From the sequence record PZ150741.1: a stretch of DNA of 48,243 nt. One strand, 5' to 3'. The translations under genes were made by a program, and so were the position numbers. The notes under the pieces were generated by a model. That model searched no databases. It was not told the DNA's origin and saw only the letters and a program-made list of their open reading frames with translations. This document shows positions 1,540 through 48,243 of this stretch, piece after piece. The DNA comes from a phage. The number at the start of each line of letters is the position of its first letter. Within the stretch, counting starts at the first letter, position 1.

Positions 1540-1541
1540 TT

Positions 1542-1790: not shown

Positions 1791-1792
1791 TT

Positions 1793-3512: not shown

Positions 3513-3534
3513 ATCTATTTTCTGTAATGAATAG

Positions 3535-3563: not shown

Positions 3564-3597
3564 TACTTCATCGACAACGAGAACGGAGTAGAGAGAA

Positions 3598-3846
3598 ATG
3601 GGCAACGTATCGACGATAGAAATAACCGAAGAACTCGAAGATAAATGCATCGCATGGACTATGGATAATGACCCGGTTGCTATGTGTAAATTTCCAATGA
3701 AAATCACAGATACCGAAGCATTCAAAGACGCACAACTGATGGCACGCATCGCCGTTAGTAACCTGAGCAATAGCATTCCAGCGGACGCGTTCTGGTTCGC
3801 CGCAATGCAGACACTGAAAGCAGCTTATGCAGGAGAGAAGAAATGA
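3598..3846 (+). CDS. hypothetical protein (82 aa)
   Basis: Track ORF; strong SD GGAGTAGAGAGAA. Confidence 0.5.
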   Translation: MGNVSTIEITEELEDKCIAWTMDNDPVAMCKFPMKITDTEAFKDAQLMARIAVSNLSNSIPADAFWFAAMQTLKAAYAGEKK

Positions 3847-4046
3847 ACAACGTCACCGTTGGCGGCATTTATAAGAGTCGTCACTCTTGGAATGAGGGTG
3901 CAAGATTCATTGTAACCGCGGTTGGGTTGGACCACGTGCTTATCGCGGACCACCCATTGATAAAATTCAATGAATCCTATTTGGAATATTGTGTTGGTAG
4001 AAAGGAGTTCGAGACTAAATTTAAGTTTGCAGGAGAGAAGAAATGA
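3843..4046 (+). CDS. hypothetical protein (67 aa)
   Basis: Track ORF; ATGA overlap; SD AGGAGAGAAG. Confidence 0.5.
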   Translation: MNNVTVGGIYKSRHSWNEGARFIVTAVGLDHVLIADHPLIKFNESYLEYCVGRKEFETKFKFAGEKK

Positions 4047-4201
4047 GTGAACAAGGTCAAGTAAGCCAGCCACTACGAGTAGGCCGTAAAGTCAGTCGCA
4101 CCCCGTTCCCGACACGCGAGGAACTGATGAAACGTAACAGTTTCCCGGGGCCGGACAAGAACAAGTATCTCAATCGTATGTGGGGAGAGCGTAAAGAATG
4201 A
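4043..4201 (+). CDS. hypothetical small protein (52 aa)
   Basis: ATG at 4043 after AGGAGAGAAG; ATGA overlap with next gene; below track cutoff. Confidence 0.4.
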   Translation: MSEQGQVSQPLRVGRKVSRTPFPTREELMKRNSFPGPDKNKYLNRMWGERKE

Positions 4202-4368
4202 AAAAGTTAATTGCAGATGTTGAACTCGGTGATGTTATTCGTATTGATGACGACTACGGCGGCTACGACGTAGTGGTGAAGCACATCGAGTGGGATTCTA
4301 CGTTGCCATTTGTCACGATTAACCGTGAAATAATGTTCACTAAAACTGATTGGGTAGAGGTTCGATAA
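4198..4368 (+). CDS. hypothetical small protein (56 aa)
   Basis: ATG at 4198 after GGGGAGAG; below track cutoff. Confidence 0.4.
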   Translation: MKKLIADVELGDVIRIDDDYGGYDVVVKHIEWDSTLPFVTINREIMFTKTDWVEVR

Positions 4369-4541
4369 TGACTAACAACGAATACGAGAAACTTAGCGTA
4401 GAAGCGGCGACCGGTGAATCTGAAATAGCGTGGATTGACGCCAACATCGAGCACTACCTACGGCAAGTAGACATCCTTATGGAACGCCGCCGTGAACTGA
4501 TTAACCGCTTCAACCTGAACAAAGGTGACGCCAATGCCTAA
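4368..4541 (+). CDS. hypothetical protein (57 aa)
   Basis: Track ORF 4350-4541; ATG at 4368 overlaps upstream TAA. Confidence 0.45.
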   Translation: MTNNEYEKLSVEAATGESEIAWIDANIEHYLRQVDILMERRRELINRFNLNKGDANA

Positions 4542-4719
4542 AATCACAATTGCATCACTAGAGCGCCGTATTCTGGTGCTCGAGTCAGAGAAACAGACGT
4601 TAGGCGGTCAACTGTCGATTAACGGCGAGTTTCAACTGGAGGCGTTTAAGATGCTACTTGAACGCATGAAGGACGAGGAAGATTGGGCGCATTCCTTGCA
4701 AGACCTCTGGCAATACTAA
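4534..4719 (+). CDS. hypothetical coiled-coil protein (61 aa)
   Basis: Track ORF 4525-4719; ATG at 4534 after AAAGGTGA. Confidence 0.45.
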   Translation: MPKITIASLERRILVLESEKQTLGGQLSINGEFQLEAFKMLLERMKDEEDWAHSLQDLWQY

Positions 4720-5724: not shown

Positions 5725-6270
5725 ATGAAGCTGAAACTCAAGCAGCCATCGCCAGAGGTGGTGCAAGCTGCACATGAAGAAGCTGTTAGCGCAAACCGTC
5801 GCCGTAAACGACCGCGCGGTAAACAGAGCCTTTATCAATCATCCCGTAATTCCGCCGCGTTGTGGGACCCGGACTATTGCGACGCGTTAATCGAGTTCTT
5901 CGACCGCACGTCGTGGGAACTTGTGCCTACGTCTAAGGGCGACGAACGCCCGCTGATTCAGGATAAGCCACCATCACTGGCCCGCTTCGCCTTACACATC
6001 GGCGTCACTATACCGATTATTAAGCTGTGGTTGCGCGAGATTCCCGCATTTGCAGAAGCTTGGGAGACAGCACAGGCGCTGGAGGAGGCGTACTTCACTG
6101 AGACAGGCGCAGCAGGCATCTCTGCTACGTTCGCTGCCGCTAAGCTGGGCCTCAGCAAAGAGAAACCGGTGGAATCTACCGAAGAAACGGCACCGACCGA
6201 GATTGTTTTCAGTGTTGCAGAGCCTGTAGGTAAGATAGTAACAACGAACATGGGCGAGGCAGAGGAATGA
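5725..6270 (+). CDS. terS: terminase small subunit (putative)
   Basis: Immediately upstream of and ATGA-overlapping terL; ATG at 5725 after AAGGGGA; basic N-terminus and HTH-like segment. Confidence 0.55.
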   Translation: MKLKLKQPSPEVVQAAHEEAVSANRRRKRPRGKQSLYQSSRNSAALWDPDYCDALIEFFDRTSWELVPTSKGDERPLIQDKPPSLARFALHIGVTIPIIKLWLREIPAFAEAWETAQALEEAYFTETGAAGISATFAAAKLGLSKEKPVESTEETAPTEIVFSVAEPVGKIVTTNMGEAEE

Positions 6271-7517
6271 GTATTCAGCTATCCGCACCACAGGCTTTGT
6301 TTCTGAACTGCGATAACAAATACAAAGCCTACGTCGGCGGCTTCGGCAGCGGCAAGACATTTGTTGGCTGCCTTGACCTGCTTACGTTCATGCTCAAACA
6401 TCCCGGTACGCGCCTCGGATACTTTGGCCCTACATATCCGGCTATCCGTGACATCTTCTACCCGACATTCGAGGAAGCGGCTAACCTGCTTGGCCTTGAT
6501 GTGCTGGTTAAATCCGGCGACAAAGAAGTCGTGGTTACTCGCGGTAAGACGGTGCTCGGGACAGTTATCTGCCGTTCTATGGATAACCCGGGGTCTATCG
6601 TTGGTTTCAAAATCGCTGCTGCAGTCGTCGACGAGTTGGACGTACTGAGCCGCGAGAAGGCCGAACTGGCGTGGAACAAAATCGTAGCCCGTATGCGACT
6701 TGTTATTCCTGGCGTAATTAACCACATCTCCGTCACCACGACACCGGAAGGGTTCAAGTTCGTCTTCGCCAAGTTCAAAGATAACCCGACGCCGAGCTAC
6801 TCAATGGTGCAGGCATCAACTCACGAGAACGCGCGATTCCTGCCGTCTGACTACATTAGCTCGCTGACCGAGACTTACCCGGCGCAACTGATTAACGCGT
6901 ACCTGAATGGTGAGTTCGTCAACCTGACCTCCGGCAGCGTCTACTACGCCTACGACCGCCGTAAGCACCGCAGCAAAGAGACAATTCAACCTGGCGACAC
7001 GCTGTACATCGGGCAGGACTTCAACGTTACGAAGAACGCCAGCGCCGTTTATGTGCAGCGTAAAGACGGCTGGCACGCGGTAGCAGAGCTGAAAGGTCTG
7101 TTCGATACGCCGGATACTGTGCGCGTAATTACTGAGAAGTGGAAGTCACATGGGCACCGCATCGTCGTTTACCCTGACGCCAGCGGCAAGAACCGCAAGA
7201 CCAACTCGGCATCAATCTCTGATATCGCGTTACTCCAGCAGGCCGGGTTCGATGTTCGCGCTAAATCTGCCAACCCCCCGGTTAAAGACCGTGTTTTAGC
7301 CGTGAATACCGCACTGGAAAAAGGTAAGCTGTGGGTTAACGACCACTTATGCCCCGAGATAGCGAAGACGCTGGAGCAGCAGGCGTACGACGATAACGGC
7401 GAGCCGGCTAAAGACGGCGTTATTGACCATATGGCGGATGCTCTAGGCTATCCTGTAGTTTACGAGATGCCGGTGGTTAAACCAGTAATCAATACCCCAG
7501 TTCGTTTCGCACTTTAA
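6267..7517 (+). CDS. terL: terminase large subunit
   Basis: Walker A GGFGSGKT, Walker B VVDELD, acidic nuclease-domain residues in C-terminal half; 416 aa. Confidence 0.9.
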   Translation: MSIQLSAPQALFLNCDNKYKAYVGGFGSGKTFVGCLDLLTFMLKHPGTRLGYFGPTYPAIRDIFYPTFEEAANLLGLDVLVKSGDKEVVVTRGKTVLGTVICRSMDNPGSIVGFKIAAAVVDELDVLSREKAELAWNKIVARMRLVIPGVINHISVTTTPEGFKFVFAKFKDNPTPSYSMVQASTHENARFLPSDYISSLTETYPAQLINAYLNGEFVNLTSGSVYYAYDRRKHRSKETIQPGDTLYIGQDFNVTKNASAVYVQRKDGWHAVAELKGLFDTPDTVRVITEKWKSHGHRIVVYPDASGKNRKTNSASISDIALLQQAGFDVRAKSANPPVKDRVLAVNTALEKGKLWVNDHLCPEIAKTLEQQAYDDNGEPAKDGVIDHMADALGYPVVYEMPVVKPVINTPVRFAL

Positions 7518-10837: not shown

Positions 10838-10863
10838 AAATACCTCCTGTTTAAGTTGGCTGA

Positions 10864-10892
10864 ATAGTACCCTATTATGTTGGGGTGCGCAA
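10864..10892 (-). promoter_or_regulatory. sigma70-like promoter (TTGCGC-17 bp-TACTAT) for 10613-10837
   Basis: Reverse complement reads TTGCGCACCCCAACATAATAGGGTACTAT; near-identical to promoters at 19711 and 42572. Confidence 0.65.
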
Positions 10893-26827: not shown

Positions 26828-29194
26828 ATGTCAAGCGGATGCGGTGACGTTTTAAGCCTGGCGGATTTACAAACCGCCAAGAAGCACCAGATTTTTGAAG
26901 CTGAAGTTATCACAGGTAAATCTGGCGGAGTAGCCGGCGGTGCTGATATTGATTACGCGACAAACCAGGTTACAGGGCAGACCCAGAAGACGTTACCCGC
27001 CGTGTTGCGTGACGCGGGATTTTCTCCAGTGTCATGGGACTTTTCGACCGGCGGCACGCTAACTGTTAATGACCGCGACAAAGTTGTCTATGACCCGGTT
27101 AGCAAAACATGGTACTCGTACGCCGGCACTCTGCCTGTTACGGTTCCAGCTGGTTTTAACCCTGTGGGTAATGCGGATTGGAAACCGCAGACAGACCCCG
27201 ATTTGCGTCATGACATAAAAACTAACGGTCTTGACGGGGTTGTTATTACATCCGCAACGACGCAAGAAATATCCCTCCTTAATTTCACAAGTGGGAAAGT
27301 GCAGCTAACCGACAGAGACAATTGCTTGTTTGAAGTATTACCTCCTGGAACGGCAACGCCAGATGGGTATGCGTATTTGGGTATGCCTAACGGTTATGTT
27401 CTTGCGCTACTTGATTCAAATGGCTCTTACAATGTGCGCGGAGCTGGTGCTGTCGGAGATGGTTACAACGATGATGGTCTACCTATCGCAAGCCTTGTTA
27501 AAAGAGCGATGCAGACAAAAAAAGGGGATTTTGTATTTCCTGCAGTCGGCGCTGGGGAATCCTATGTCCTCAAGACCCCTGTAGATTTAATTTTTTCCAG
27601 TGCGACAATAGACCCGCCATCATTCACTTTTCGCGGGGTAGGTTCGGTTAATGGTCTCAGTATGCAGACTCGAATCGCCCACATTCGCGAAACGTACGGT
27701 ATAAAGCAGCGTAATATTGGAGCAACTTACCGTGACTTTCAGGCTATTGTATACTGCGGAGCACCTGCAAACATTATCAGCACCGGAGTTAACACCATTA
27801 CTCTGGACAGGAACCCATTCGGCGGAAATGGTGGCACCCCTGTAACATGGAATAGCACTGTTACTGCCGGAGATGGCACGCAGTATAGCTCTGGTTACGT
27901 CCAATTCGCGACAAACGCCGGTAGTTTTTATGCAAGCTCTTTCACGGATAATGGTGATGGAACATACACATTCGGCAATGTTAGACATGTAACATCTGCG
28001 TCAACCGACCTGACAACAAGCACACGAATTGTGCGTTTTTCATGCCGTGCACACTTTGAACCATCTGATGGCGGTAAATATCCAACCCCATCTGGTTATG
28101 CTGTTACCGCTGGTTTTATTTGGGCTGATACTCTTGAGAACATCCATATCGATCATGTTTGGTTTCTTCAACAGTTAAGATGTGTGGTACATGATTTGGG
28201 CGCTGGTGGCAGTGGTGATTCAGGGATAGGTAACATAGGTACTGTATCCAACGTAATCGTTGACGGGGCTTTCTCTTTTATGACCAACACCGATTTGTCG
28301 GCCTCGAGCGCACAGTCACTTAACGGCGGACATTTTTCCAACGTTCAGTTTTATTCTGTTAGGGCGCCATTTGTAGGGCGAAGAATACAGAATATTAACA
28401 TGGCTTCATTGCAATTATTTAGTTCAGATGGCCTGTTCTTTGCGCGTGATATTTCTCATGTGGCTATCCCAGGTGCAATATTGGGCTGGGACGGTACAAC
28501 AGGATTCTGTAAAAATATTGTTGTTTGTGAAAACATAGAAGATGCTAACTTCGGTTCATGTGTATTTGGGCGACACCAACACTCAACTCCAGTCATGACG
28601 TTTAACTCAGTTAACGGGCTATCTCTGGTCGGCGCAACACTCGGTACTGTATCTGAGGGTGCCACCGTCGGGGCGTGGATGTATGTAACAGGGAGCAACT
28701 ATAATATATCGGGGTTGAATATTTCAGTATCAATAGCGCACTTAACCGGTTCAGGAAGAAATGAATTGACGCTTTTAGCGGAAGATACGACAACAACTTC
28801 TGTTAACATGTTACGAAATAAATTTAGTTCTCGTGTTTATACAAATATCGCTAGAGACCTGAGAGATTACGACAGCACATCTGGTTTTTACGGTTATCTA
28901 TATTCAGGGGGCTCACCAAATGGTGGTTACAGCTTTGCTTTTAGTGTTGATGTATCTAGCTGGACACCATCTCTGAAAAGGAAGGCGATAAAACTTGGCG
29001 GGGCATTGACGTCTTCTGTGTCAAAAACTCTGCCAAGCGCCATAACTGAACCCGATAACGCTTCTGATTTTATAATAGATACCTCGTCTGTAGCACTTGG
29101 TTCTTACACGCTTACAGTATCAGGGTATACTTTAACCGCAGGAGTGCATGTGTTTAAGTGGGTCGGTTCATGGATACTGGTGTCCAGCAAATAA
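26828..29194 (+). CDS. tailspike / tail fiber protein with probable beta-helix receptor-binding domain
   Basis: 788-aa last late gene; N-terminal region resembles conserved siphovirus tailspike anchor domains; Gly/Ser/Thr/Asn-rich body. Confidence 0.55.
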   Translation: MSSGCGDVLSLADLQTAKKHQIFEAEVITGKSGGVAGGADIDYATNQVTGQTQKTLPAVLRDAGFSPVSWDFSTGGTLTVNDRDKVVYDPVSKTWYSYAGTLPVTVPAGFNPVGNADWKPQTDPDLRHDIKTNGLDGVVITSATTQEISLLNFTSGKVQLTDRDNCLFEVLPPGTATPDGYAYLGMPNGYVLALLDSNGSYNVRGAGAVGDGYNDDGLPIASLVKRAMQTKKGDFVFPAVGAGESYVLKTPVDLIFSSATIDPPSFTFRGVGSVNGLSMQTRIAHIRETYGIKQRNIGATYRDFQAIVYCGAPANIISTGVNTITLDRNPFGGNGGTPVTWNSTVTAGDGTQYSSGYVQFATNAGSFYASSFTDNGDGTYTFGNVRHVTSASTDLTTSTRIVRFSCRAHFEPSDGGKYPTPSGYAVTAGFIWADTLENIHIDHVWFLQQLRCVVHDLGAGGSGDSGIGNIGTVSNVIVDGAFSFMTNTDLSASSAQSLNGGHFSNVQFYSVRAPFVGRRIQNINMASLQLFSSDGLFFARDISHVAIPGAILGWDGTTGFCKNIVVCENIEDANFGSCVFGRHQHSTPVMTFNSVNGLSLVGATLGTVSEGATVGAWMYVTGSNYNISGLNISVSIAHLTGSGRNELTLLAEDTTTTSVNMLRNKFSSRVYTNIARDLRDYDSTSGFYGYLYSGGSPNGGYSFAFSVDVSSWTPSLKRKAIKLGGALTSSVSKTLPSAITEPDNASDFIIDTSSVALGSYTLTVSGYTLTAGVHVFKWVGSWILVSSK

Positions 29195-29195
29195 A

Positions 29196-29224
29196 ACTAA
29201 GGCCCCTTTCGGGGCCTTTTCTCT
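29196..29224. terminator. bidirectional terminator AAGGCCCC-TTTC-GGGGCCTT
   Basis: Third copy of the same hairpin; separates convergent late and replication blocks. Confidence 0.8.
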
Positions 29225-29360
29225 ACTCTTCTGTTAACTTCTCCAGTACAAACGCCAGTTGCGCATTAGCAGCATCTCTCTGTTGCCGTAGTCGTAGAAC
29301 CTCTTCCTCGAGTTCCTTGATACGTTTTTGCAATGCTGGAATCGGGGCTATGATGTTCAT
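29223..29360 (-). CDS. possible small coiled-coil protein (45 aa)
   Basis: ATG overlaps stop of Toprim gene (ATGA); ends at terminator; below track cutoff. Confidence 0.3.
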   Translation of the reverse strand: MNIIAPIPALQKRIKELEEEVLRLRQQRDAANAQLAFVLEKLTEE

Positions 29361-39440: not shown

Positions 39441-41681
39441 CTATTCCAAATCTTCCTCTGTAACTATCAGCATTTCATTCGGTTCGTATATTGTCTTCGG
39501 TCTTAATCTGTCACCCATCTTTTCCGGTATCCGGTATGTACCGGGAATAACCTCGCCGTTAACATCACACCCTAGCATCAACTCACCGTCCTTCAGCATC
39601 TTCTCAAGATGGTGGTTGGTTATGGCGTGGTCGCCGGAGTTCGCTACTATCTGCCGTTGGGTAAAACCTCGTCCGGTGTCGTCGGACTGTTGCAGGTCTT
39701 CCAGCGCGGCGAGTATTGATTCCTTACGCCCTTCATCCTTCCCACGTTTTACGGCATTCTTTACGTTTTCCTTACCTTCCTTTGTCAGCCCTTCTTCGCG
39801 CTCTTTCTCCTCGTCAGTTTTGAACGGCTCGAAACCCCACGGCATCAACACAAGCGCCTTGTGCGGCTCAGGCAGGTCCAGGTTTACGATTGTGCCGTAC
39901 TCCTCGGTGCTACCCAGGAACTCAACCGCACGGTACTCTTTTGGCGGCGGGGCTTCACGGAACTGTACGGACTCCAGAACCATACCGACAGTTTTCTGTT
40001 GAGGCCCGTGCTTAAATTTCGAGTGGTATACGTTTATCTGACGGTCGGTTGCACGTTCGATTGTCAGTTCCACGTCGACGCCCGCATACAGCGCCCCACT
40101 GCCACGGGCTTTCTTTCCGCCTTTCGGCGTATGGTGAACAACGCCCACCGCGGCTTTAGTCGCATCGCGTACTTCTTTCAGGATGGCGATAACTTTACCC
40201 ATGCCGATTGCCGTCGATGAACTGTTCTCGTCGAACTTATCAATTGTCAGGGCCAGCGTCTGGTTAAGGGTGTCGAACGCGACCATTCCGATAGGTTCAT
40301 CCCCGGCAGTTTCGCGCATGAGCTTAATCAGGCTTTTCAGTTTGCCGACTTCGCCCATATCGATGACATGTACATAATCTTTACCTTCCGCGCCATATTT
40401 AGCCGCGAGTGCATCGATACGTGTACGTGTGGCTGCACCACCCTCACCATCGATATAGAAATGGTGACAACGCTGGGTATCCGCCCCCGCAAACCGGTAA
40501 CCAGCGGCGCTGAGATACATCATACCCAGCGTATAGAACGATTTGTACGTGCCAGATTCCCCGACGATATCCCAGATACAATCCGACGGCATGTACCCTT
40601 CGACGACGAAATCAGCCTTTACCGGTTCCGGTAATTCGTCCTCCTCTGAGTCCTCGTCGTCTTCCAGGTCGTCCAGGCTGCATGAGACGGATTCACGCGC
40701 ACCCCAACCGATGGCCTCTGCCACTTCACTGAATGGCAGCCCGGTCGCATCGCACGCGTACTTCCACACCTCTTTCGGCGACATGCCTTCGGTTGCCGTA
40801 ATGTCGGTGTCGTGAATCATGGTTACGTTCGGAGCTTCATATCCCTCGCGCGGGAAGCACAGCAGGAAGTCGTCCGGGCGCGGTGTCGGGTCGCTGTAGT
40901 TTTCTGCGTGTTCTGGCGTAGCTGGCATTTTCAGTCCGCGGGGTGTCATGACACCGCCGTACTCGAACGCCAGTGCTTCGAACGCATCCGTAAACGCGGT
41001 GCGCAGTTCTTCCGGTATCTGGTAATCCGATGCGCTGCTAACGTCAACGGCGGGGATGCCTTCCAGTAACTCGTCCGGGTCAATCAGGTCGTTGCGGCGC
41101 GACCAGATAACCTGAGAGCCAACCGGCGGCAGGTACATCGGCTGCGACAGAGTAAAACCGCTGCGGTCGGCGCCCATGCCTTTGAAGAAGTGTTCCAGCA
41201 GCCCATGACGAACACGGGTGATGTCGCCACCCTCAACCGGACGGCCCAGCGGCATGACGACGCGAAAGCGCGGGGACTCATCGGTATGGGATGCCGTGGT
41301 GTAGAGGCACATAGCCCGGCGGCTGCGCTTAACCAGGCGCACCGCTTCCTGGTACTCTTCCGGTGTTGCGCTGTCGAAGTCCAGATACGCCAGCGACGAT
41401 TTGCTTACAGAAGCGTCGCAGCGGTATAAAAAGCCTTTGCGCGCTTGCTTAAAGTCACCAGTTTCCGGGTCTTTTACGGTGCTGTGTGTAGAGTCACACG
41501 CGGCGGTGATATAGCCGGGCGCAGTCTTAGGGTTAACCCCATCGCGAACGGCATCGAGCGGCTGAATTAACTCTTTCAGGTCGTCCAGTGTTGCCGTGTG
41601 TGTGGTTCTGACGTTTATATCCTTTTTCTCTGCTCTCGCGTTGCGACGTGACCACGAGTAGGATAAAATTGCATCGGACAT
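39441..41681 (-). CDS. primase-helicase (N-terminal primase-like region plus RecA/DnaB-like NTPase)
   Basis: Walker A GESGTYKS and downstream acidic Walker B-like VAFD; 746 aa, large N-terminal domain; placement in replication block. Confidence 0.55.
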   Translation of the reverse strand: MSDAILSYSWSRRNARAEKKDINVRTTHTATLDDLKELIQPLDAVRDGVNPKTAPGYITAACDSTHSTVKDPETGDFKQARKGFLYRCDASVSKSSLAYLDFDSATPEEYQEAVRLVKRSRRAMCLYTTASHTDESPRFRVVMPLGRPVEGGDITRVRHGLLEHFFKGMGADRSGFTLSQPMYLPPVGSQVIWSRRNDLIDPDELLEGIPAVDVSSASDYQIPEELRTAFTDAFEALAFEYGGVMTPRGLKMPATPEHAENYSDPTPRPDDFLLCFPREGYEAPNVTMIHDTDITATEGMSPKEVWKYACDATGLPFSEVAEAIGWGARESVSCSLDDLEDDEDSEEDELPEPVKADFVVEGYMPSDCIWDIVGESGTYKSFYTLGMMYLSAAGYRFAGADTQRCHHFYIDGEGGAATRTRIDALAAKYGAEGKDYVHVIDMGEVGKLKSLIKLMRETAGDEPIGMVAFDTLNQTLALTIDKFDENSSSTAIGMGKVIAILKEVRDATKAAVGVVHHTPKGGKKARGSGALYAGVDVELTIERATDRQINVYHSKFKHGPQQKTVGMVLESVQFREAPPPKEYRAVEFLGSTEEYGTIVNLDLPEPHKALVLMPWGFEPFKTDEEKEREEGLTKEGKENVKNAVKRGKDEGRKESILAALEDLQQSDDTGRGFTQRQIVANSGDHAITNHHLEKMLKDGELMLGCDVNGEVIPGTYRIPEKMGDRLRPKTIYEPNEMLIVTEEDLE

Positions 41682-41739
41682 GTTGTATTTCCTTCAGCAA
41701 GTAATTTGGCCTCGGCGTTCACCGCGTCGGGGCTTTCTT

Positions 41740-41973
41740 TTATTCCAGGTCTTCTAAAGTAGCGGTCATTCCGCGAACTTCGGCAACGGCGCTATATTTC
41801 CCGCCAACGTTTTTCACGACACCGGATTTAACCAGAACACGTAACGACCCTTCAATAATGGCGGAACTATAGTACTTAAAATAACTACGGCGCAAGTCGA
41901 TAACACTGCACGACCCTTTTTTACGTGTTAACGAAACGACTGCTGTGAATACTCGTGACTGGAACTCGGTCAT
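41740..41973 (-). CDS. hypothetical protein (77 aa)
   Basis: Track ORF; ATGA-coupled to upstream HTH gene. Confidence 0.45.
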   Translation of the reverse strand: MTEFQSRVFTAVVSLTRKKGSCSVIDLRRSYFKYYSSAIIEGSLRVLVKSGVVKNVGGKYSAVAEVRGMTATLEDLE

Positions 41974-42140
41974 TTCACGTTCTCCTTAATCCACGCTTCC
42001 ACTTTCTCCGGGTCGAACGTACCTGGCTGCCGGCGGCCCATAATGCGAATACAACAATCCGGGAACTTTCCACTCTTTAACCAGTTATTCAGCGTGCGAC
42101 GGGTAACCCCGATACGCTCAGCTACCTCATTCTGCGTCAT
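41970..42140 (-). CDS. AlpA/excisionase-like HTH DNA-binding protein (56 aa)
   Basis: MTQNEVAERIGVTRRTLNNWLKSGKFP resembles AlpA-family HTH; first gene after leftward promoter; below track cutoff. Confidence 0.55.
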   Translation of the reverse strand: MTQNEVAERIGVTRRTLNNWLKSGKFPDCCIRIMGRRQPGTFDPEKVEAWIKENVK

Positions 42141-42172
42141 TCTCAAACCCTCATCATCAGTTAACGAAACAA

Positions 42173-42201
42173 AGTATACATTGCGAATAATGGGAAATCA
42201 A
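42173..42201 (-). promoter_or_regulatory. sigma70-like promoter (TTGATT-17 bp-TATACT) for leftward operon
   Basis: Reverse complement gives TTGATT, 17-bp spacer, TATACT about 30 nt upstream of ATG 42140. Confidence 0.5.
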
Positions 42202-42475
42202 ACATAATCGCACCTATTGACATTATGAAAATCTTCGTTTAAGGTGCTTCTATATCTTAGTTACTTTGATTCCTGTTCACCTTGTAAATCCGCTTAAACC
42301 GTGCGTTAAGCAAAGGGTTAAGCGCAAGTTTACTGAACATGAGAATTATTGTAACTTTCCTTCCTAAGTATCTCAGGTTGCCCTGGGCGAGCTATATTCT
42401 CATCGGCAGCATATCTCTTAAGTATCTGATTTTCTTAAAGTGCCGTAGATTCGCAACCGTAAAAATGTAACCCTT

Positions 42476-42506
42476 ACCGGGCAGGCTTAAGGCCTGCCCT
42501 TTAGTT
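42476..42506 (+). terminator. terminator hairpin GGGCAGGC-TTAAG-GCCTGCCC plus TTTAGTT inside control region
   Basis: 8-bp perfect stem plus T-rich tail; no annotated upstream + strand gene. Confidence 0.5.
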
Positions 42507-42571
42507 ACCAAGTAATAAGAATAAAGGCACAACCTTCCCTAAAGAATCACAACGGCAACGTAACTATTCTC

Positions 42572-42600
42572 TTGCACACCCCAACATAATAGGATACTAT
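42572..42600 (+). promoter_or_regulatory. sigma70-like promoter (TTGCAC-17 bp-TACTAT)
   Basis: TTGCACACCCCAACATAATAGGATACTAT; followed by AACGAGACAGAGGAG leader and ATG 42635. Confidence 0.65.
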
Positions 42601-42634
42601 TCACTTATCGAAACGAGACAGAGGAGTGAGGGTT

Positions 42635-42820
42635 ATGTTTAAGAAGGGTCAGTTGGTGAAAACGAAAGATTACGGTTATTACGGTGTTATCGAACAAATT
42701 TCAAATGATGTTATCGGGATGTACTACATCTATATACCTGACGGGCGTTTCGGTAAGTGGTGCTTTGGCGATGAGATAACACTAATCGGCAACAATTTTA
42801 AATTCAAAGGGGCGAAGTGA
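42635..42820 (+). CDS. hypothetical small protein (61 aa)
   Basis: Track ORF 42626-42820; ATG at 42635 after GAGGAGTGAGGG. Confidence 0.5.
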   Translation: MFKKGQLVKTKDYGYYGVIEQISNDVIGMYYIYIPDGRFGKWCFGDEITLIGNNFKFKGAK

Positions 42821-43059
42821 TGCAAATCATAATTACAGATAACACAGTTTCCTACGAAAAAGGTGACGACGATACTTTGGAAAGCATAGGTGTAAATATA
42901 GGTGACGTTTTCGAGGTGCTTGGTCCTGTATCAGGCGGATGGTGGATTAAGGTTGGGCGCTACAAAGTTCCGGTAAGTAAAGCCGAAGCGGAAATACACA
43001 CAACGGCATCGAATCACGATGCTCGTGCCGACGACTCTGAGGGAGGTTGCCGTGAATAA
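42820..43059 (+). CDS. hypothetical protein (79 aa)
   Basis: Track ORF 42817-43059; ATG 42820 overlaps upstream stop. Confidence 0.45.
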   Translation: MQIIITDNTVSYEKGDDDTLESIGVNIGDVFEVLGPVSGGWWIKVGRYKVPVSKAEAEIHTTASNHDARADDSEGGCRE

Positions 43060-43119
43060 TTACCCGTTTATTTTAATCATCAGCGCCGTTTATGCGGTGC
43101 ACGCGTTGTGGGGGTTGTT

Positions 43120-43263
43120 ATGAGAGAAGCATTTGAACGGTGGGCCGTCGTCGAGGGGCTGCCGGTTAACAAGGGTTCAAAGAAAGAGTACCTGAACGTC
43201 AAGACGCGTCTCGCGTGGCGGGCGTGGAAAGCCGGGGTGTTGTCTGTGATGAATAAGGGGTGA
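43120..43263 (+). CDS. hypothetical small protein (47 aa)
   Basis: ATG at 43120; Trp/Arg-rich; below track cutoff. Confidence 0.3.
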   Translation: MREAFERWAVVEGLPVNKGSKKEYLNVKTRLAWRAWKAGVLSVMNKG

Positions 43264-43266
43264 GAT

Positions 43267-43464
43267 ATGAGTGAATGGATTAAGTGCAGTGAGCGGATGC
43301 CAGGTGATTTTGAAGATGTTCTGGTTACTGATGGGGTCTATGTAGAAGTTATGTGGTTAGATTGTGATGGGTATTGGGATAGTCGGGTAGAGTCGTGGGC
43401 GGTTACGGTGGACCGGGAAGATATAACACACTGGATGCCGTTACCAGAGCCGCCGGAAGTGTGA
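43267..43464 (+). CDS. hypothetical protein, DUF551-like (tentative)
   Basis: Track ORF; C-terminal WMPLPEPP resembles small phage DUF551 proteins. Confidence 0.45.
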   Translation: MSEWIKCSERMPGDFEDVLVTDGVYVEVMWLDCDGYWDSRVESWAVTVDREDITHWMPLPEPPEV

Positions 43465-43495
43465 TGTTCAATAGTTTGGGATTTTACTGAGTGAC

Positions 43496-43530
43496 TTACG
43501 CTGCTACACAGCAGCGTATCATTTTTCTCA
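43496..43530 (+). terminator. rho-independent terminator ACGCTGC-TACACA-GCAGCGT plus T-runs
   Basis: 7-bp stem followed by ATCATTTTTCTCATTTTT; immediately upstream of repeat/promoter. Confidence 0.7.
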
Positions 43531-43611
43531 TTTTTGTTCTATTTCACGAAACGCAACAATTGAAGCTACTATTGCAGGAGATGCAACAATACAAACACCA
43601 ATAAAATTTAC

Positions 43612-43640
43612 TTGCACACTAAGATAGAATATGCTACTAT
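43612..43640 (+). promoter_or_regulatory. sigma70-like promoter, copy of 36-64
   Basis: Duplicate within repeat. Confidence 0.6.
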
Positions 43641-43670
43641 TCATTTACACAAACGAGAGGAGAGGCAGAT

Positions 43671-43820
43671 ATGGTTACTTTGATGGTTATGGAGTTCGAA
43701 AACAGCACCGCAACTTACCGCGAGATGACTATGGCGCAGGCGTATCACCTGGCCTCAAACGGCAACTTCTACAAGGCCCAAATCATCAACGAGTTCGGGG
43801 TAATTGACTATGAATTTTAA
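43671..43820 (+). CDS. hypothetical small protein (copy of 95-244)
   Basis: Duplicate within repeat. Confidence 0.45.
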   Translation: MVTLMVMEFENSTATYREMTMAQAYHLASNGNFYKAQIINEFGVIDYEF

Positions 43821-44082
43821 CAGTTACACCGTTACCGTTGATTTTGAGGGGCTGGAGCTGCCCCTCCCTAACAACTACCGGTATATCTCACGCGACTGTA
43901 ACGGGTTTATTCAGGGGTGGCGGAACAAACCGACAGATACTGAGTTCGGGATGTCTGGCGGGGAAGAGTTGCCGATCACTTTCGGACATCAGAGTAGCAA
44001 CGAAGAACTTAAAACCGTGATTCGTAAGTATCGCCGCCGCGGTAACACCGGACTTATAGCAATAACAGGCGCGGTTGAATAA
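43810..44082 (+). CDS. hypothetical protein (copy of 234-506)
   Basis: Duplicate within repeat. Confidence 0.5.
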   Translation: MNFNSYTVTVDFEGLELPLPNNYRYISRDCNGFIQGWRNKPTDTEFGMSGGEELPITFGHQSSNEELKTVIRKYRRRGNTGLIAITGAVE

Positions 44083-44101
44083 ACGAGAGGAGAGACAGAA
44101 G

Positions 44102-44320
44102 ATGTTCCTGGAATGCAAATCCTATGAAGGCTATTGGGCGCTGACCAAAAACGACCTGTACCACCTCAAAGAAGACGGCGACGAGAGCCGCTGCTACATA
44201 ATAGACGACAATGGCACTGAACTTGATGTCTATTACACCGGGTATGGTCGATGGGCGTTATTGGCGGACGATGACTTTGTGTTCGAAGAATATAACGGAG
44301 AGGAGCCAGAAGATGAGTAA
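44102..44320 (+). CDS. hypothetical protein (copy of 526-744)
   Basis: Duplicate within repeat. Confidence 0.5.
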   Translation: MFLECKSYEGYWALTKNDLYHLKEDGDESRCYIIDDNGTELDVYYTGYGRWALLADDDFVFEEYNGEEPEDE

Positions 44321-44915
44321 CAAAAACGAAGTATTAGAATACCTGATTGACCAGCTACGGCAGCAGCTACCGGTAGTAGATGTAATGGGTGAAATAAAAC
44401 GGTGGAGCATAGACCGTAGTATTGCTGGCCGAGGTAACTATACCGAAGAGGAAAACGCCGTAATCGATGCTTACATCGGCCTGGAGCACAACCCATACAA
44501 GCAACAGTGCGAAGACCTGGCACATGAGGTGCAGTCACTCAAGAATCAGTTACGCGACGCTTCGGCGCTGGTGGCTGAGTTACAGAGCGACAACATTAAG
44601 AAATCTGAGCACATATCGCACCTGTCGGAACTGGTGGACGAGTTGATGGGGACTATAACGTTAATGAACGGGGACGTTGAGGCTTACAAAGTTCTACGCA
44701 AAGGTGGGTACGTGCCTGAGCAATCCGGTTGCCGTAAGGACGATACCCAGGAATGCGAGCATGAGTGGCGATGTGTGGTAGTTTTTGGGAATAGACTTGG
44801 GACCCCGTATTGCCGTAAATGTGGTGCGGCTAAACCTGAAGAATGCAAGCACGAATGGCAATTTTACGGAGTCGGGTTTCCTTGTATGTGCCTTAAATGC
44901 GGGTTAAAGAAATGA
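44314..44915 (+). CDS. zinc-ribbon-like protein (copy of 738-1339)
   Basis: Duplicate within repeat. Confidence 0.5.
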
Positions 44916-45115
44916 CCAGCATCCTTTTTATCTGGGTACTGTCTGCAGGTCAGATGCATCTGGCGGCATCAGAAACGTTTTACTCGATGGAGGCGTGCCG
45001 GTCAGCGGCACGCGCCGCAGAGAACGCACACTTCCTGTTTCAGGGCGACAAGCCCAACGATTCAGAGGTACGCGCTATCTGCTCACCTAAGCGACTTGGT
45101 AAACAGGAGAAGTGA
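44912..45115 (+). CDS. hypothetical small protein (copy of 1336-1539)
   Basis: Duplicate within repeat. Confidence 0.4.
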   Translation: MTSILFIWVLSAGQMHLAASETFYSMEACRSAARAAENAHFLFQGDKPNDSEVRAICSPKRLGKQEK

Positions 45116-45117
45116 TT

Positions 45118-45366
45118 ATGGTTAAATTATACGCAGAGCGCGATTTAGAAATGCTCGACATGACTAACAATTACTATTCAAGACATGTGATGGCTATGAC
45201 GGAGGAAGGATTGAACAGTAAATCATCTATCGCTGCTGAGTTGGCGTACCGTGACTGGATTATTGATGAACAGCAAAAAGAGTTACAGAAATACAAAGAC
45301 CAGTTCCCGGATTACGTCGAGTGCGCGAACTGTGGGTTGGTCACACATGTGGAAGGGGTAGAGTGA
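45118..45366 (+). CDS. hypothetical protein (copy of 1542-1790)
   Basis: Duplicate within repeat. Confidence 0.45.
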   Translation: MVKLYAERDLEMLDMTNNYYSRHVMAMTEEGLNSKSSIAAELAYRDWIIDEQQKELQKYKDQFPDYVECANCGLVTHVEGVE

Positions 45367-45368
45367 TT

Positions 45369-45587
45369 ATGATATTCAGAGACCGTAGCAGCTTAAGAAC
45401 ACCGGATTGTCCTACGTTCGAGTTCGAAGACAAAGACGGAGATGTATGCTGTATTCAATTTTATAGAGACGATGAAGGTGAGTGCGGGCTTGTAGAGTTG
45501 CAGGTTTACAGTGAAACCGGTTGTGTTGTATTAAGTGCAGATGATGCGGAATCACTAGCTCGTAAGATACTTGAGGGCGTTAAATGA
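45369..45587 (+). CDS. hypothetical protein (copy of 1793-2011)
   Basis: Duplicate within repeat. Confidence 0.45.
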   Translation: MIFRDRSSLRTPDCPTFEFEDKDGDVCCIQFYRDDEGECGLVELQVYSETGCVVLSADDAESLARKILEGVK

Positions 45588-45877
45588 GCCTCGCAACTGA
45601 CATCCTGAAACGAAGCGGCCTTGCGCCGCTGTCACCGAGAGCGAACACCCAAATATACAAGCGCCGCCGTAATGCGCTGTACCCCGAGATTCAGGCCAGA
45701 CGCAAAGCTATCCGCGCCTGTGGATTCCAGAACGGGAAGGCCGTGAATCTCGGTGAGTTTAAAACACAGGAACGCGCAGCAATCGCTAACCGGTTATTTA
45801 ATTACTGGAAATCGCTGGGGTACGATGATATTCCGACGAAACCACAGAGACGACAATACATCTGGAGACACAAATAA
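45584..45877 (+). CDS. hypothetical basic protein (copy of 2008-2301)
   Basis: Duplicate within repeat. Confidence 0.45.
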   Translation: MSLATDILKRSGLAPLSPRANTQIYKRRRNALYPEIQARRKAIRACGFQNGKAVNLGEFKTQERAAIANRLFNYWKSLGYDDIPTKPQRRQYIWRHK

Positions 45878-45952
45878 ACAACTATTAGGATAATTCCTAC
45901 CCGTGGTATCCTCCAGTTACTGCATACTTAATACGCACCTGGAGGATTCATC

Positions 45953-46261
45953 TTGGATAAATTTACTGAAACAGTGACAGGCTGGCTTCTAGCTGCCGCG
46001 CTCGCCGGAGGGGTAATCGGACTACGACAACATAAGTCCGTTATTTCTGGCCCCACCGACGGCTTCTGCTTTATTGCTACTGGCTTCACTTGCGCCGTAT
46101 TTGGTGCACCTCTTGCCGCTCAATGGTTCGGAATCACGGGCGACCGTGAAATCGCCGGGTTGGGCTTCATTATCGCTGTTCTCTGGATGCCTATCTATTC
46201 CCGTCTATCCAGTATCGTAGCCGGGGAATACATCGCACGTCGAGGAGGCACAGATGAATGA
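45953..46261 (+). CDS. holin-like membrane protein (copy of 2377-2685)
   Basis: Duplicate within repeat. Confidence 0.45.
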   Translation: MDKFTETVTGWLLAAALAGGVIGLRQHKSVISGPTDGFCFIATGFTCAVFGAPLAAQWFGITGDREIAGLGFIIAVLWMPIYSRLSSIVAGEYIARRGGTDE

Positions 46262-46526
46262 GTTATTCTGGTTCGGCGGTATGCTGGCAATCGGGGGCAC
46301 ATCGCTGTTTAATGTGTACCACCCCAGCGTGGACGATGGGTTATTTGGTAGGGTGCTCTATATCCTGACAGCTATCGTCTGCGCCGCCGGATGTATCCAC
46401 TTGCTACAGGGCAGCATGTCCCCGACGCTGCCTGAGACGTTAATCACATTAGTTGCGCTGCGCCAGATTCGCCAGGCGTGGTTGTCATACGGAGGACATA
46501 AGCGTGTCTCGAAATATTTCAGATAA
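46254..46526 (+). CDS. holin/antiholin-like membrane protein (copy of 2678-2950)
   Basis: Duplicate within repeat. Confidence 0.45.
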   Translation: MNELFWFGGMLAIGGTSLFNVYHPSVDDGLFGRVLYILTAIVCAAGCIHLLQGSMSPTLPETLITLVALRQIRQAWLSYGGHKRVSKYFR

Positions 46527-46990
46527 TGGGTTGCATTTTACCGCTGCGTTCGAGGGATTCCGGAACTGCGTATCGTGCTACGCCGAACGAGAAGTACCTG
46601 ACTATAGGCTATGGAAGCTACGGTCCGCATGTTAAGGCGGGGCAAACCATCACGCCTGGTCAGGGCTTACTATTACTTAATCGCGATATGGCTAAAGCCG
46701 TAGTTGCGGTTGATGCGGCGGCGCACCACTCATTGACACAGGCGCAGTTCGATGCAGTGTGCGACCTGGTGTATAACGCGGGTGCCGGAGTGATTGCGGC
46801 TACTACTGGCACAGGTAAGGCACTGCGTTCTGGCGATATTGCGACACTGCGGGCTAAGCTGGCGCTGTTCATCAACCAGAACGGCAAACCGTTACTTGGC
46901 TTACGTCGTCGCGTAGCTGGTCGCCTGGCGCTGTTCGACGGTAAACCGTGGCAGGAGGCGGAGGCTATTGGACGTGCGGTGAAAGGTTGA
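46504..46990 (+). pseudogene. endolysin copy disrupted by 2-bp deletion (frameshift)
   Basis: Relative to 2928-3416, CGCG becomes CG at 46561; reading frame breaks after FEGFR; track splits it into 46453-46635 and 46526-46990. Confidence 0.8.
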
Positions 46991-47054
46991 CACATAAGAC
47001 TAATCCGACGATACTTAAATCACCTCCTGCTCCATCCCTCTGCTCTCCAGTTTT

Positions 47055-47085
47055 ATCCCGGCCCTGACCCAGCCGGGATTTTTTT
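47055..47085 (+). terminator. terminator copy with T7 instead of T8
   Basis: Same hairpin as 3481-3512, one T shorter. Confidence 0.8.
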
Positions 47086-47107
47086 ATCTATTTTCTGTAA
47101 TGAATAG

Positions 47108-47136
47108 TTGACTATTACTCTGACCCCAATTATATT
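47108..47136 (+). promoter_or_regulatory. sigma70-like promoter, copy of 3535-3563
   Basis: Duplicate within repeat. Confidence 0.55.
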
Positions 47137-47170
47137 TACTTCATCGACAACGAGAACGGAGTAGAGAGAA

Positions 47171-47419
47171 ATGGGCAACGTATCGACGATAGAAATAACC
47201 GAAGAACTCGAAGATAAATGCATCGCATGGACTATGGATAATGACCCGGTTGCTATGTGTAAATTTCCAATGAAAATCACAGATACCGAAGCATTCAAAG
47301 ACGCACAACTGATGGCACGCATCGCCGTTAGTAACCTGAGCAATAGCATTCCAGCGGACGCGTTCTGGTTCGCCGCAATGCAGACACTGAAAGCAGCTTA
47401 TGCAGGAGAGAAGAAATGA
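47171..47419 (+). CDS. hypothetical protein (copy of 3598-3846)
   Basis: Duplicate within repeat. Confidence 0.5.
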   Translation: MGNVSTIEITEELEDKCIAWTMDNDPVAMCKFPMKITDTEAFKDAQLMARIAVSNLSNSIPADAFWFAAMQTLKAAYAGEKK

Positions 47420-47619
47420 ACAACGTCACCGTTGGCGGCATTTATAAGAGTCGTCACTCTTGGAATGAGGGTGCAAGATTCATTGTAACCGCGGTTGGGT
47501 TGGACCACGTGCTTATCGCGGACCACCCATTGATAAAATTCAATGAATCCTATTTGGAATATTGTGTTGGTAGAAAGGAGTTCGAGACTAAATTTAAGTT
47601 TGCAGGAGAGAAGAAATGA
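47416..47619 (+). CDS. hypothetical protein (copy of 3843-4046)
   Basis: Duplicate within repeat. Confidence 0.5.
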   Translation: MNNVTVGGIYKSRHSWNEGARFIVTAVGLDHVLIADHPLIKFNESYLEYCVGRKEFETKFKFAGEKK

Positions 47620-47774
47620 GTGAACAAGGTCAAGTAAGCCAGCCACTACGAGTAGGCCGTAAAGTCAGTCGCACCCCGTTCCCGACACGCGAGGAACTGA
47701 TGAAACGTAACAGTTTCCCGGGGCCGGACAAGAACAAGTATCTCAATCGTATGTGGGGAGAGCGTAAAGAATGA
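47616..47774 (+). CDS. hypothetical small protein (copy of 4043-4201)
   Basis: Duplicate within repeat. Confidence 0.4.
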   Translation: MSEQGQVSQPLRVGRKVSRTPFPTREELMKRNSFPGPDKNKYLNRMWGERKE

Positions 47775-47941
47775 AAAAGTTAATTGCAGATGTTGAACTC
47801 GGTGATGTTATTCGTATTGATGACGACTACGGCGGCTACGACGTAGTGGTGAAGCACATCGAGTGGGATTCTACGTTGCCATTTGTCACGATTAACCGTG
47901 AAATAATGTTCACTAAAACTGATTGGGTAGAGGTTCGATAA
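47771..47941 (+). CDS. hypothetical small protein (copy of 4198-4368)
   Basis: Duplicate within repeat. Confidence 0.4.
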   Translation: MKKLIADVELGDVIRIDDDYGGYDVVVKHIEWDSTLPFVTINREIMFTKTDWVEVR

Positions 47942-48114
47942 TGACTAACAACGAATACGAGAAACTTAGCGTAGAAGCGGCGACCGGTGAATCTGAAATA
48001 GCGTGGATTGACGCCAACATCGAGCACTACCTACGGCAAGTAGACATCCTTATGGAACGCCGCCGTGAACTGATTAACCGCTTCAACCTGAACAAAGGTG
48101 ACGCCAATGCCTAA
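47941..48114 (+). CDS. hypothetical protein (copy of 4368-4541)
   Basis: Duplicate within repeat. Confidence 0.45.
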   Translation: MTNNEYEKLSVEAATGESEIAWIDANIEHYLRQVDILMERRRELINRFNLNKGDANA

Positions 48115-48243
48115 AATCACAATTGCATCACTAGAGCGCCGTATTCTGGTGCTCGAGTCAGAGAAACAGACGTTAGGCGGTCAACTGTCGATTAACGGCG
48201 AGTTTCAACTGGAGGCGTTTAAGATGCTACTTGAACGCATGAA
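48107..48243 (+). CDS. hypothetical protein, 3'-truncated by window end (copy of 4534-4719)
   Basis: Duplicate within repeat; ORF runs off the window. Confidence 0.4.
   Translation, partial: MPKITIASLERRILVLESEKQTLGGQLSINGEFQLEAFKMLLERM

Follow-up and report, generated by a model that had tools for sequence, protein, structure and literature searches.

A 4.67-kb terminal repeat in a K1G-like Kagunavirus genome probably reflects headful packaging from a near-fixed pac site

Main finding and identity of the phage

We found that the window, the whole 48,243-nucleotide stretch of phage DNA analysed here, begins and ends with the same 4.67-kb sequence, and this repeat probably reflects real terminal redundancy rather than random assembler overshoot. 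In the reading that we consider likely, a K1G-like Kagunavirus packages its DNA by a pac-headful mechanism with a near-fixed start, the window approximates a first-headful molecule, and the two indels that distinguish the repeat copies are errors. The window would then probably represent a real first-headful chromosome of approximately 48.3 kb with a redundancy of approximately 10.7%, derived from a long-read assembly. Headful terminal redundancy is already known biology, and no new mechanism is implied.

Judged by its similarity to database records, the window is the genome of a K1G-like Kagunavirus (Guernseyvirinae), an E. coli phage, and the favoured reading takes it with the same good likelihood to be virulent. 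Many Kagunavirus records matched at approximately 88-92% identity over 72-85% of the query, and no species-level match (at least 95% over the whole genome) was seen in nucleotide searches tiling almost all of the window. A 40-mer spanning the junction had no exact counterpart in viral, metagenomic or genomic contig collections, and megablast with 40000-48243 returned nothing from complete E. coli genomes and, from PLSDB, only CP088689, an entry labelled "plasmid" with 88% identity. The 234-aa ORF, TerL and the endolysin likewise had no exact protein match. The window was co-linear with the circular genome of K1G (43,587 bp) and with fEg-Eco19 for 1.107 turns, and the records of both phages lack a terminal repeat. 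Among the matches listed, the unit genomes of relatives ranged from 40.6 to 45.8 kb; all were smaller than 48.2 kb, which they would have to be if they shared a head capacity of approximately 48 kb.

Extent and boundaries of the terminal repeat

Bases 1-4670 recurred at 43577-48243 with 4,667 matching positions, no mismatches and two gaps in both a self-BLAST (99.94% identity, E = 0) and a base-by-base walk. The spacing of the copies gives a unit length of 43,576 bp, and the window holds approximately 1.1 genome copies. The direct repeat at both window ends and the genome size of approximately 43.6 kb described in the first-pass annotation were thus borne out. The features of the repeat are as follows:

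1-4670, + strand: left repeat copy, the correct-looking one, which matches fEg-Eco19 and EC3-1 at both indel sites; it carries small early-type ORFs, two holins, an endolysin, a terminator and further small ORFs
2377-2685 and 2678-2950, + strand: the two holins inside the left repeat copy, named from the annotation of relatives
4525-4719, + strand: small ORF of 64 aa (phrog_9023), inside which the right limit of the repeat and the window end fall
43577-48243, + strand: right repeat copy, three bases shorter than the left and carrying both deletions

Position 1/43577 sits in a 206-nt gap between an ORF at 43267-43464 and the ATG at 43671, while the right limit (4670/48243) falls within ORF 4525-4719, a position that could result either from a headful cut made regardless of sequence or from an end placed arbitrarily. 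The earlier statement that the repeat does not end at gene boundaries is therefore correct for the right limit and incorrect for the left, which is intergenic. Relatives were continuous across both 43576|43577 and 4670|4671, so the limits of the repeat simply coincide with the window ends. The repeat had also been thought to be possibly longer; it is bounded by the window ends on both sides, and that suggestion would need a source record that extends past the window. The same sequence is present at both ends of the linear molecule and in a single copy in the unit map of relatives. A tandem duplication in a larger genome was ruled out, as all K1G genes are already present in one unit and the limits of the repeat match the two ends of the window.

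The window start and the mapped pac terminus of fEg-Eco19

PhageTerm analysis of fEg-Eco19 (OL539727) returned the classes Redundant, Left = 1, Right = Distributed, Permuted = Yes, Forward and Headful (pac), with a pac peak of T = 0.65 and p = 2e-25 at which the record was re-started (PMC9038960 supplement); the restriction digests of this phage are said to agree with headful pac packaging (PMC9038960). Upon alignment, base 1 of the fEg-Eco19 record corresponded to window position 43544 and its last base to 43543. The window start thus lies 33 nt downstream of the homologous pac terminus, and its strand is that of the "Forward" packaging; around the site, approximately 7 of 170 positions differ from fEg-Eco19. 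The elements around this site are as follows:

43497-43525, + strand: intrinsic-terminator-like hairpin with a T-rich tail (TACGCTGCT-acac-AGCAGCGTA), just upstream of the pac position, identified by scan and in the sequence
43544-43576, + strand: the 33 nt from the homologous pac terminus to the recurrence of the window start; the cut falls between 43543 and 43544, TTGTTCTATT|TCACGAAACGCAACAAT
43553-43560 and 43583-43590, + strand: two direct GCAACAAT octamers, 30 nt apart, which flank the window-start position; the second is also found at 7-14

A random linearisation point would fall within 33 nt on either side of the terminus in approximately 67/43,576 cases (0.15%), or half of that if orientation is counted; the fEg-Eco19 start was spotted after the matches among 491 related records had been viewed, and it was the only start seen there that had been set from termini data. 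The alignment suggests that the window start is not arbitrary, and the left end looks like a real, nearly fixed physical end. We infer that both ends of this sequence are those of a physical DNA molecule, with 4.67 kb as its true redundancy, on the assumption that the 33-nt offset arose through bases lost from the end during assembly or through a cut at a slightly different position. By homology only, packaging would proceed from one specific pac site and away from that end. A scattered second end would be consistent with a right end that lies inside ORF 4525-4719 without a conserved break and with the distributed right end and permutation assigned to fEg-Eco19.

The octamer GCAACAAT occurs six times in the window, compared with 1.7 expected, and two of these copies lie at 43553-43590; we infer only that it may be a candidate terminase recognition element. 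In Shashou, Sciku and Snoke, the hairpin at 43497-43525 bears the annotation "terminator". The 200 nt around the octamers and the junction were 93-97% conserved in more than 60 Kagunavirus records, and this region was intact in a single stretch in 130 records, lying in the record interior in the 60 listed. It was also conserved in relatives with a TerL only 54% or 40% identical, so a terminator/promoter function may explain this conservation better than pac does. A promoter-like TTGCAC-N17-TACTAT was seen by eye only at 43612-43640, where the scan reported none.

Terminase genes

Both terminase subunits are encoded downstream of the left repeat copy:

5725-6270, + strand: small terminase subunit, 181 aa from the ATG (phrog_3064 "terminase", E = 3e-73)
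6267-7517, + strand: large terminase subunit, 416 aa (Pfam Terminase_6N, 1.6e-19; Terminase_6C, 4e-11)

The small subunit shares 178 of 181 residues with gp18 of fEg-Eco19, and the large subunit (TerL) is 98.1% identical to the TerL proteins of both fEg-Eco19 and K1G. TerL also matched the PBSX-type family TIGR01547 below cut-off; Terminase_6N/6C and TIGR01547 are not specific to one packaging strategy. A sequence search of both subunits against PDB chains returned chance matches only and no solved terminase. The nearest TerL proteins outside the family belong to Dhillonvirus phages (41%), which are predicted headful packagers; all non-family relatives were at most 41% identical, and no classical model phage was among them. 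The strongest terminase argument for a headful lineage appears to be the 98% identity to the fEg-Eco19 terminase. The pac position lies approximately 5.7 kb upstream of terS, which is atypical for classical pac phages and counts against packaging from pac as proposed below.

Proposed packaging scheme

In Guernseyvirinae, read data have led to classification as headful/pac or as lacking fixed termini for fEg-Eco19 (PMC9038960), Shashou (PMC6776780) and fBC-Eco01 (PMC9825357). Under the favoured reading, the phage would replicate to concatemers, which would be packaged by a headful mechanism from pac. A nearly fixed intergenic cut would be made at 43543|43544, and packaging would run rightward through the small early ORFs, the lysis cassette, terS/terL, the structural genes and finally the leftward replication genes. 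It would stop at a full head of approximately 48.3 kb, or 110.7% of the 43,576-bp unit, and the last 4.67 kb would repeat the first 4.67 kb because packaging continued past one unit. This redundancy would allow the injected DNA to circularise by recombination. The window itself probably came from virion DNA in which first-headful molecules dominated, put together by a long-read or overlap-type assembler; its start 33 nt inside the pac end would be expected if the contig had lost a few tens of terminal bases, and its right end would be the headful cut inside a gene. The two repeat copies would represent one locus, and the missing CG and T would be consensus errors in a thinly covered right end.

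The first-pass proposal of terminal redundancy in a headful-packaged genome of approximately 43.6 kb was supported by the 1.107 turns of co-linearity with K1G and by the termini data of relatives. Its description of the genome as circularly permuted with approximately 10.7% redundancy needs a partial correction: the headful redundancy stands, but with a start 33 nt from the pac terminus the population is probably much less permuted.

Differences between the two repeat copies

A base walk confirmed the two indels at 2985-2988/46561 and 3505-3512/47079-47085. The sites and the affected gene are as follows:

2928-3416, + strand: intact endolysin of 162 aa that starts with GTG; it overlaps the end of holin 2, an arrangement shared by relatives
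2985-2988, + strand: CGCG of the left copy, which reads CCGCGG at 2984-2989; the right copy reads CCGG at 46560-46563 (CG at 46561-46562)
3505-3512, + strand: T8 run that forms the tail of the terminator downstream of the endolysin, read as T7 in the right copy (47079-47085)
46504-46990, + strand: frameshifted endolysin copy, with a GTG at 46504, loss of frame after codon 19 and a stop at codon 44

At the CG site, fEg-Eco19 has CCGCGG and EC3-1 has CCGGGG, six bases each like the left copy. The T8 tract, directly 3' of the hairpin CCCGGC-N9-GCCGGG (3483-3503), is the only homopolymer of at least eight bases in the unit genome. As the left copy agrees with these relatives at both sites, it is the right copy that has lost bases in each case. 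The intact endolysin matched Pfam Phage_lysozyme (E = 2.5e-25) and was 93.8% identical to the fEg-Eco19 lysin, whereas the missing CG breaks the endolysin frame after 19 codons in the right copy. There, a 154-aa ORF at 46526-46990 begins with 12 residues out of frame, and the conserved FEGF segment of the N-terminus is missing from it. Across the whole window, this endolysin copy was the one conserved gene with a frameshift.

From these comparisons, both indels are probably consensus errors in the right copy and not heterogeneity. The earlier attribution to assembly or read errors held, as both are deletions relative to the family consensus, one breaking the endolysin frame and the other falling in the longest homopolymer. 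With only two errors, the chance probability that both fall in the right copy is 0.25. The indels could instead be real if the sequenced molecule were a terminal-redundancy heterozygote or the population carried two alleles, and nothing in the sequence alone forbids this; such heterozygotes occur in headful phages, as reportedly found in Streisinger's T4 work. We nevertheless regard real indels as highly improbable. The copies show zero substitutions over 4,667 bp, both changes are deletions in low-complexity contexts, one of them inactivates the endolysin while the other lies in the single longest homopolymer of the genome, and the left copy carries the family consensus at both sites.

Alternative origins of the ends

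The same repeat could arise from pure assembler overshoot, in which a permuted or circular genome was assembled 4.67 kb past its start and left untrimmed, so that the ends and the length are arbitrary. The underlying biology, a headful Kagunavirus, would be the same as in the favoured reading. The overlap begins with the first base of the window and stops with the last, its copies differ by changes of the sequencing-error type, as in an assembler artefact, and the right end lies within a gene. In addition, the Kagunavirus fBC-Eco01 had no termini detectable by PhageTerm (PMC9825357), and recent Kagunavirus genomes are often Flye nanopore assemblies. However, the linearisation point of the window does not appear arbitrary, as the position homologous to the mapped pac terminus is 33 nt from the start and the orientation is that of packaging, a placement with a chance of approximately 0.1-0.15%. 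A head could also plausibly hold the total of 48.2 kb, which slightly exceeds the largest genome among the matches listed (45.8 kb). We therefore consider overshoot a clearly less likely origin of the ends, although one that deserves some weight.

Far less probable is a fixed direct terminal repeat (DTR) of approximately 4.67 kb in the style of T5 or SPO1, with both boundaries defined and a non-permuted genome. The ends are identical in form, the left end is near a mapped terminus, and the T value of fEg-Eco19, 0.65, is higher than a pac phage would usually give. However, PhageTerm gave fEg-Eco19 a single forward peak, no reverse-strand peak, a distributed right end and a permuted genome; Shashou was classed as pac (PMC6776780), and fBC-Eco01 was without termini (PMC9825357). 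The right boundary of the window repeat lies inside ORF 4525-4719, which relatives cross without a shared break, and the K1G and fEg-Eco19 records carry no repeat. With the evidence from fEg-Eco19 as its basis, our analysis points to neither the defined boundaries nor the absence of permutation that a fixed DTR entails. Literature searches found no report of a Kagunavirus DTR or of a measured redundancy.

Comparison with known packaging systems

The closest system is that of fEg-Eco19, which has the same genome plan, approximately 90% nucleotide identity over the aligned parts and a nearly identical intergenic pac region. In contrast, its record is of unit length (45,805 bp) without a repeated end, while the window shows redundancy and a shorter unit of 43,576 bp; if both shared one head capacity, the redundancy of fEg-Eco19 would be approximately 5%, compared with approximately 10.7% in the window phage. 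The classical pac phages P22, P1 and SPP1 likewise start at pac, package in one direction and make a sequence-independent headful cut past one unit, producing terminally redundant DNA, and their redundancy varies inversely with genome size. Classical redundancies are approximately 3-4% for P22, SPP1 and T4 and approximately 10% for P1, and the 10.7% of the window phage is at the high end of these values. Unlike in P22, P1 and SPP1, the pac position in the window is intergenic and is not within or beside terS, from which it is separated by the distance given above. The T value of 0.65 in fEg-Eco19 also differs from the classical pattern, as it suggests mostly first headfuls and hence limited permutation.

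End overlaps left by long-read or overlap assemblers resemble the window in that the start recurs over several kb at the contig end with few homopolymer or short-repeat indels; in contrast to such overlaps, the window start adjoins a mapped packaging terminus and is not arbitrary. The Morganella phage Mecenats66 packages by headful from a preferred initiation site (PMC9503643). It shares a single dominant read-start and a non-specific second headful cut, but the phage and its terminase are unrelated, and the extent of redundancy was not determined there, compared with 4.67 kb from the window.

Implications

If the ends are physical, they would set a head capacity of approximately 48.3 kb and a redundancy of approximately 10.7% for the genus. 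Kagunaviruses are in use as small synthetic-biology chassis (PMC11990801), and the head-capacity figure is useful for engineering in that it sets how much DNA can be inserted. We tentatively raise the possibility, which we think doubtful, that Kagunaviruses with this terminase package almost exclusively one headful per initiation, giving a fixed left end and a variable redundancy of approximately 4.7 kb. If true, this would be a hybrid of pac-headful and DTR ends, with initiation by a precise cut 5.7 kb upstream of terS, where a conserved intergenic region serves as terminator/promoter, and the window would provide the first explicit size measurement in the genus. For curation, we recommend a genome unit of 43,576 bp that keeps the left copy as the correct one; the right copy otherwise introduces a spurious truncated endolysin and duplicated gene calls.

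Repeat at the window ends and relatives of the phage

A self-comparison of the window revealed that bases 1-4670 (the left copy) recur at 43577-48243 (the right copy). The alignment has 4,667 matching positions, two gaps and not one mismatch, giving a unit length of 43,576 bp. A base-by-base walk agreed with this comparison, and the end repeat reported in the first-pass annotation is real. The repeat spans the first to the last window base, so that the window ends, rather than an internal feature, define its limits. The repeated segment contains small ORFs, two holins, the endolysin, a terminator and further small ORFs upstream of terS.

Megablast searches with three stretches tiling almost all of the window returned Kagunavirus and Jerseyvirus records by the hundred. 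In the best matches, 72-85% of the query aligned at about 88-92% identity, and no record was near-identical. Judged by sequence, the window represents a siphophage of E. coli that is K1G-like and belongs to Kagunavirus, a genus of the subfamily Guernseyvirinae. It was co-linear for 1.107 turns with the circular genome of K1G (43,587 bp) and with fEg-Eco19 (OL539727; 45,805 bp), whose lysis region aligned twice to the window, with one match at each end; on comparison with the window, the terminal repeat was absent from both records. One alignment of the relative EC3-1 spanned -460 to +100 about the 43576/43577 junction, which other relatives also crossed, and the 4670/4671 junction was likewise crossed by alignments of relatives. 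The 200 nt about 43577 showed 93-97% identity in more than 60 Kagunavirus records and were unbroken in 130 records; in the 60 records listed, they were internal to the record. As the relatives are uninterrupted across both junctions, the repeated segment is a normal region of the unit genome, present there in single copy.

We also observed that CP088689.1 (PLSDB; 44,086 bp), filed as a non-mobilizable plasmid of an E. coli isolate from human blood, matched the last 8.2 kb of the window in two places (88% identity, 31% of the query); the lysozyme and small ORFs are among the matched parts. The record is also as long as a Kagunavirus genome, and it seems to be a phage genome submitted as a plasmid.

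Window start and the mapped packaging terminus

The fEg-Eco19 record was re-started by its authors at the physical end found by PhageTerm (PMC9038960). Their analysis returned Ends Redundant, Left = 1, Right = Distributed, Permuted = Yes, Orientation Forward and Headful (pac), with a PhageTerm value (T) of 0.65 at +1 (p = 2e-25) and minor starts 4-8 nt upstream; according to the authors, restriction digests agreed with PhageTerm (PMC9038960). Base 1 of fEg-Eco19 fell on window position 43544 and its final base on 43543. The window start, which corresponds to 43577, is thus 33 nt downstream of the position matching the packaging start (pac) and has the same strand orientation as packaging. Between the two phages, the small terminase subunit (TerS) was identical at 178 of 181 residues, the large subunit (TerL) was 98.1% identical, and about 7 of 170 positions differed in the pac-site region. 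Because the terminases and the site region are near-identical, the same cut would be expected in the window's phage. The chance that a random linearisation falls within +/-33 nt of the pac position is about 0.15%, or half of that with orientation counted, and the window start does not appear to be arbitrary.

Features around the pac-equivalent position
43465-43670, intergenic gap with the pac-equivalent position
43497-43525, terminator hairpin in this gap
43553-43560 and 43583-43590 (the second also at 7-14), two copies of the octamer GCAACAAT, 30 nt apart, in this gap
start of the rightward early/lysis gene block, in this gap

The intergenic region was 93-97% conserved, above the flanking mosaic small-ORF regions, and was present in 445 records, Salmonella Jerseyviruses included. 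GCAACAAT is a candidate for an element linked to the terminase. The pac region was also conserved in Kagunaviruses and Jerseyviruses with a TerL only 54% or 40% identical, and transcription signals probably account for its conservation no less than packaging does. Directly after the second GCAACAAT, positions 14-17 and 43590-43593 form a mosaic breakpoint or insertion hot spot; several relatives, among them vB_VIPECOTPH05A, ZCEC5 and Bas73, have an additional stretch of about 150-160 nt at this point, and many relatives' alignments begin at window base 17-19.

The Pfam families of TerL were not specific to one packaging strategy, no PDB sequence match to the terminase was found, and the nearest TerL relatives outside Guernseyvirinae belonged to Dhillonvirus (41% identity). 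TerL (6267-7517) was 95-99% identical in 74 records, only about 54% identical in most Jerseyviruses and several Kagunaviruses (Bas74, Bas75, Golestan, EM1), and about 40% identical and Dhillonvirus-like in Kagunavirus BCH953P1. The terminase module appears to be mosaic within Guernseyvirinae, so a packaging site mapped in one Kagunavirus may not hold for others or transfer genus-wide.

Differences between the two copies

The base-by-base walk placed the two indels at the positions proposed in the first-pass annotation.

CGCG at 2985-2988 (left copy), CG at 46561-46562 (right copy)
T8 at 3505-3512 (left copy), T7 at 47079-47085 (right copy), directly 3' of a G+C-rich hairpin

At both sites, the left copy had the same length as fEg-Eco19 and EC3-1 (CCGCGG or CCGGGG; T8), and the right copy was 2 bases shorter than the relatives at the CG site and 1 base shorter at the T tract. 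The left-copy endolysin, starting at GTG 2928, encodes a 162-aa lysozyme (Pfam Phage_lysozyme, E=2.5e-25) that is 93.8% identical to the fEg-Eco19 lysin. In the right copy, its reading frame was broken past codon 19, and a 154-aa ORF from 46526 opened with 12 out-of-frame residues; a tblastn comparison of the ORFs of three relatives with the whole window revealed this to be the sole frameshift among conserved genes. No homopolymer in the 43.6-kb unit other than the T8 tract reaches 8 bases, and both deletions, one in a dinucleotide repeat and one in this longest homopolymer, lie only in the last 4.7 kb. This pattern is the signature of a consensus built from homopolymer-sensitive reads at a contig end with thin coverage. 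The left-copy lengths, the right-copy frameshift and the complete lack of substitutions bear out the earlier suggestion of sequence errors, and both lie in the right copy. The genome is best used as the 43,576-bp unit with the left copy as the trusted sequence, and the right copy's gene calls, which are duplicates or broken, should be disregarded.

To our knowledge, de Bruijn-graph short-read assembly cannot yield an imperfect overlap of several kb and leaves exact overlaps of k-mer length; the overlap found here therefore implies a long-read or overlap assembler.

Packaging model

The window is most likely explained by headful pac packaging with a linear contig of the first headful. Phage DNA would be made as concatemers, cut by the terminase at the pac position (43543/43544) and translocated rightward until a full head brought about a sequence-independent cut after about 48.3 kb (110.7% of the unit); after injection, recombination between the 4.67-kb redundant ends would then allow the DNA to circularise. 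If such virion DNA were assembled from long reads, the outcome would be a linear contig reaching from the pac end, or nearly so, to the headful end, and this is just how the window looks. By analogy, the high T in fEg-Eco19 suggests that first headfuls dominate. Both ends of the window sequence may be physical ends, with the 33 missing bases presumably lost in assembly, and about 48.3 kb can serve as a provisional head capacity for Kagunavirus. Consistent with a headful mechanism, the related unit genomes in the megablast match lists (40.6-45.8 kb) were all shorter than 48.2 kb, and other members of Guernseyvirinae have been classed as pac/headful or as lacking fixed termini. The co-linear relatives with a single copy and the pac-mapped fEg-Eco19 support the original reading as headful terminal redundancy. 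What the window shows is the terminal redundancy usual for headful phages, exposed by the assembly mode; both the biology and the genus were already known.

If the assembler had overrun a permuted or circular genome at random, all of this biology would be the same and the ends and the 4.67-kb figure would be meaningless, but the coincidence of the window start with the pac position makes this rather unlikely. We consider a fixed direct terminal repeat highly improbable, as fEg-Eco19 has a single-strand peak and a distributed right end, and the right boundary of the repeat falls inside the ORF at 4525-4719, where no break is conserved. True heterozygosity between the copies is equally hard to credit, given that their differences are purely of the error type.

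Other repeats and terminators

Three copies of a conserved element of about 33 nt, TGAATAGTA(C/T)CCTATTAT(G/A)TTGGGGTG(C/T)GCAAG, were found in intergenic positions of the window. A terminator hairpin, AAATAAAACTAAGGCCCCTTTCGGGGCCTTTT, was present in two near-identical copies.

10861-10892 (+), conserved element ahead of the Rz/scaffold/capsid genes
19707-19739 (+), conserved element ahead of the tail chaperone/tape-measure genes
42572-42603 (-), conserved element ahead of the leftward early genes
17892-17929, terminator hairpin after the tail gene (16723-17895)
29191-29228, terminator hairpin after the tailspike gene (26828-29194)

The conserved element is also repeated in K1G and fEg-Eco19 and is probably a shared promoter or operator.
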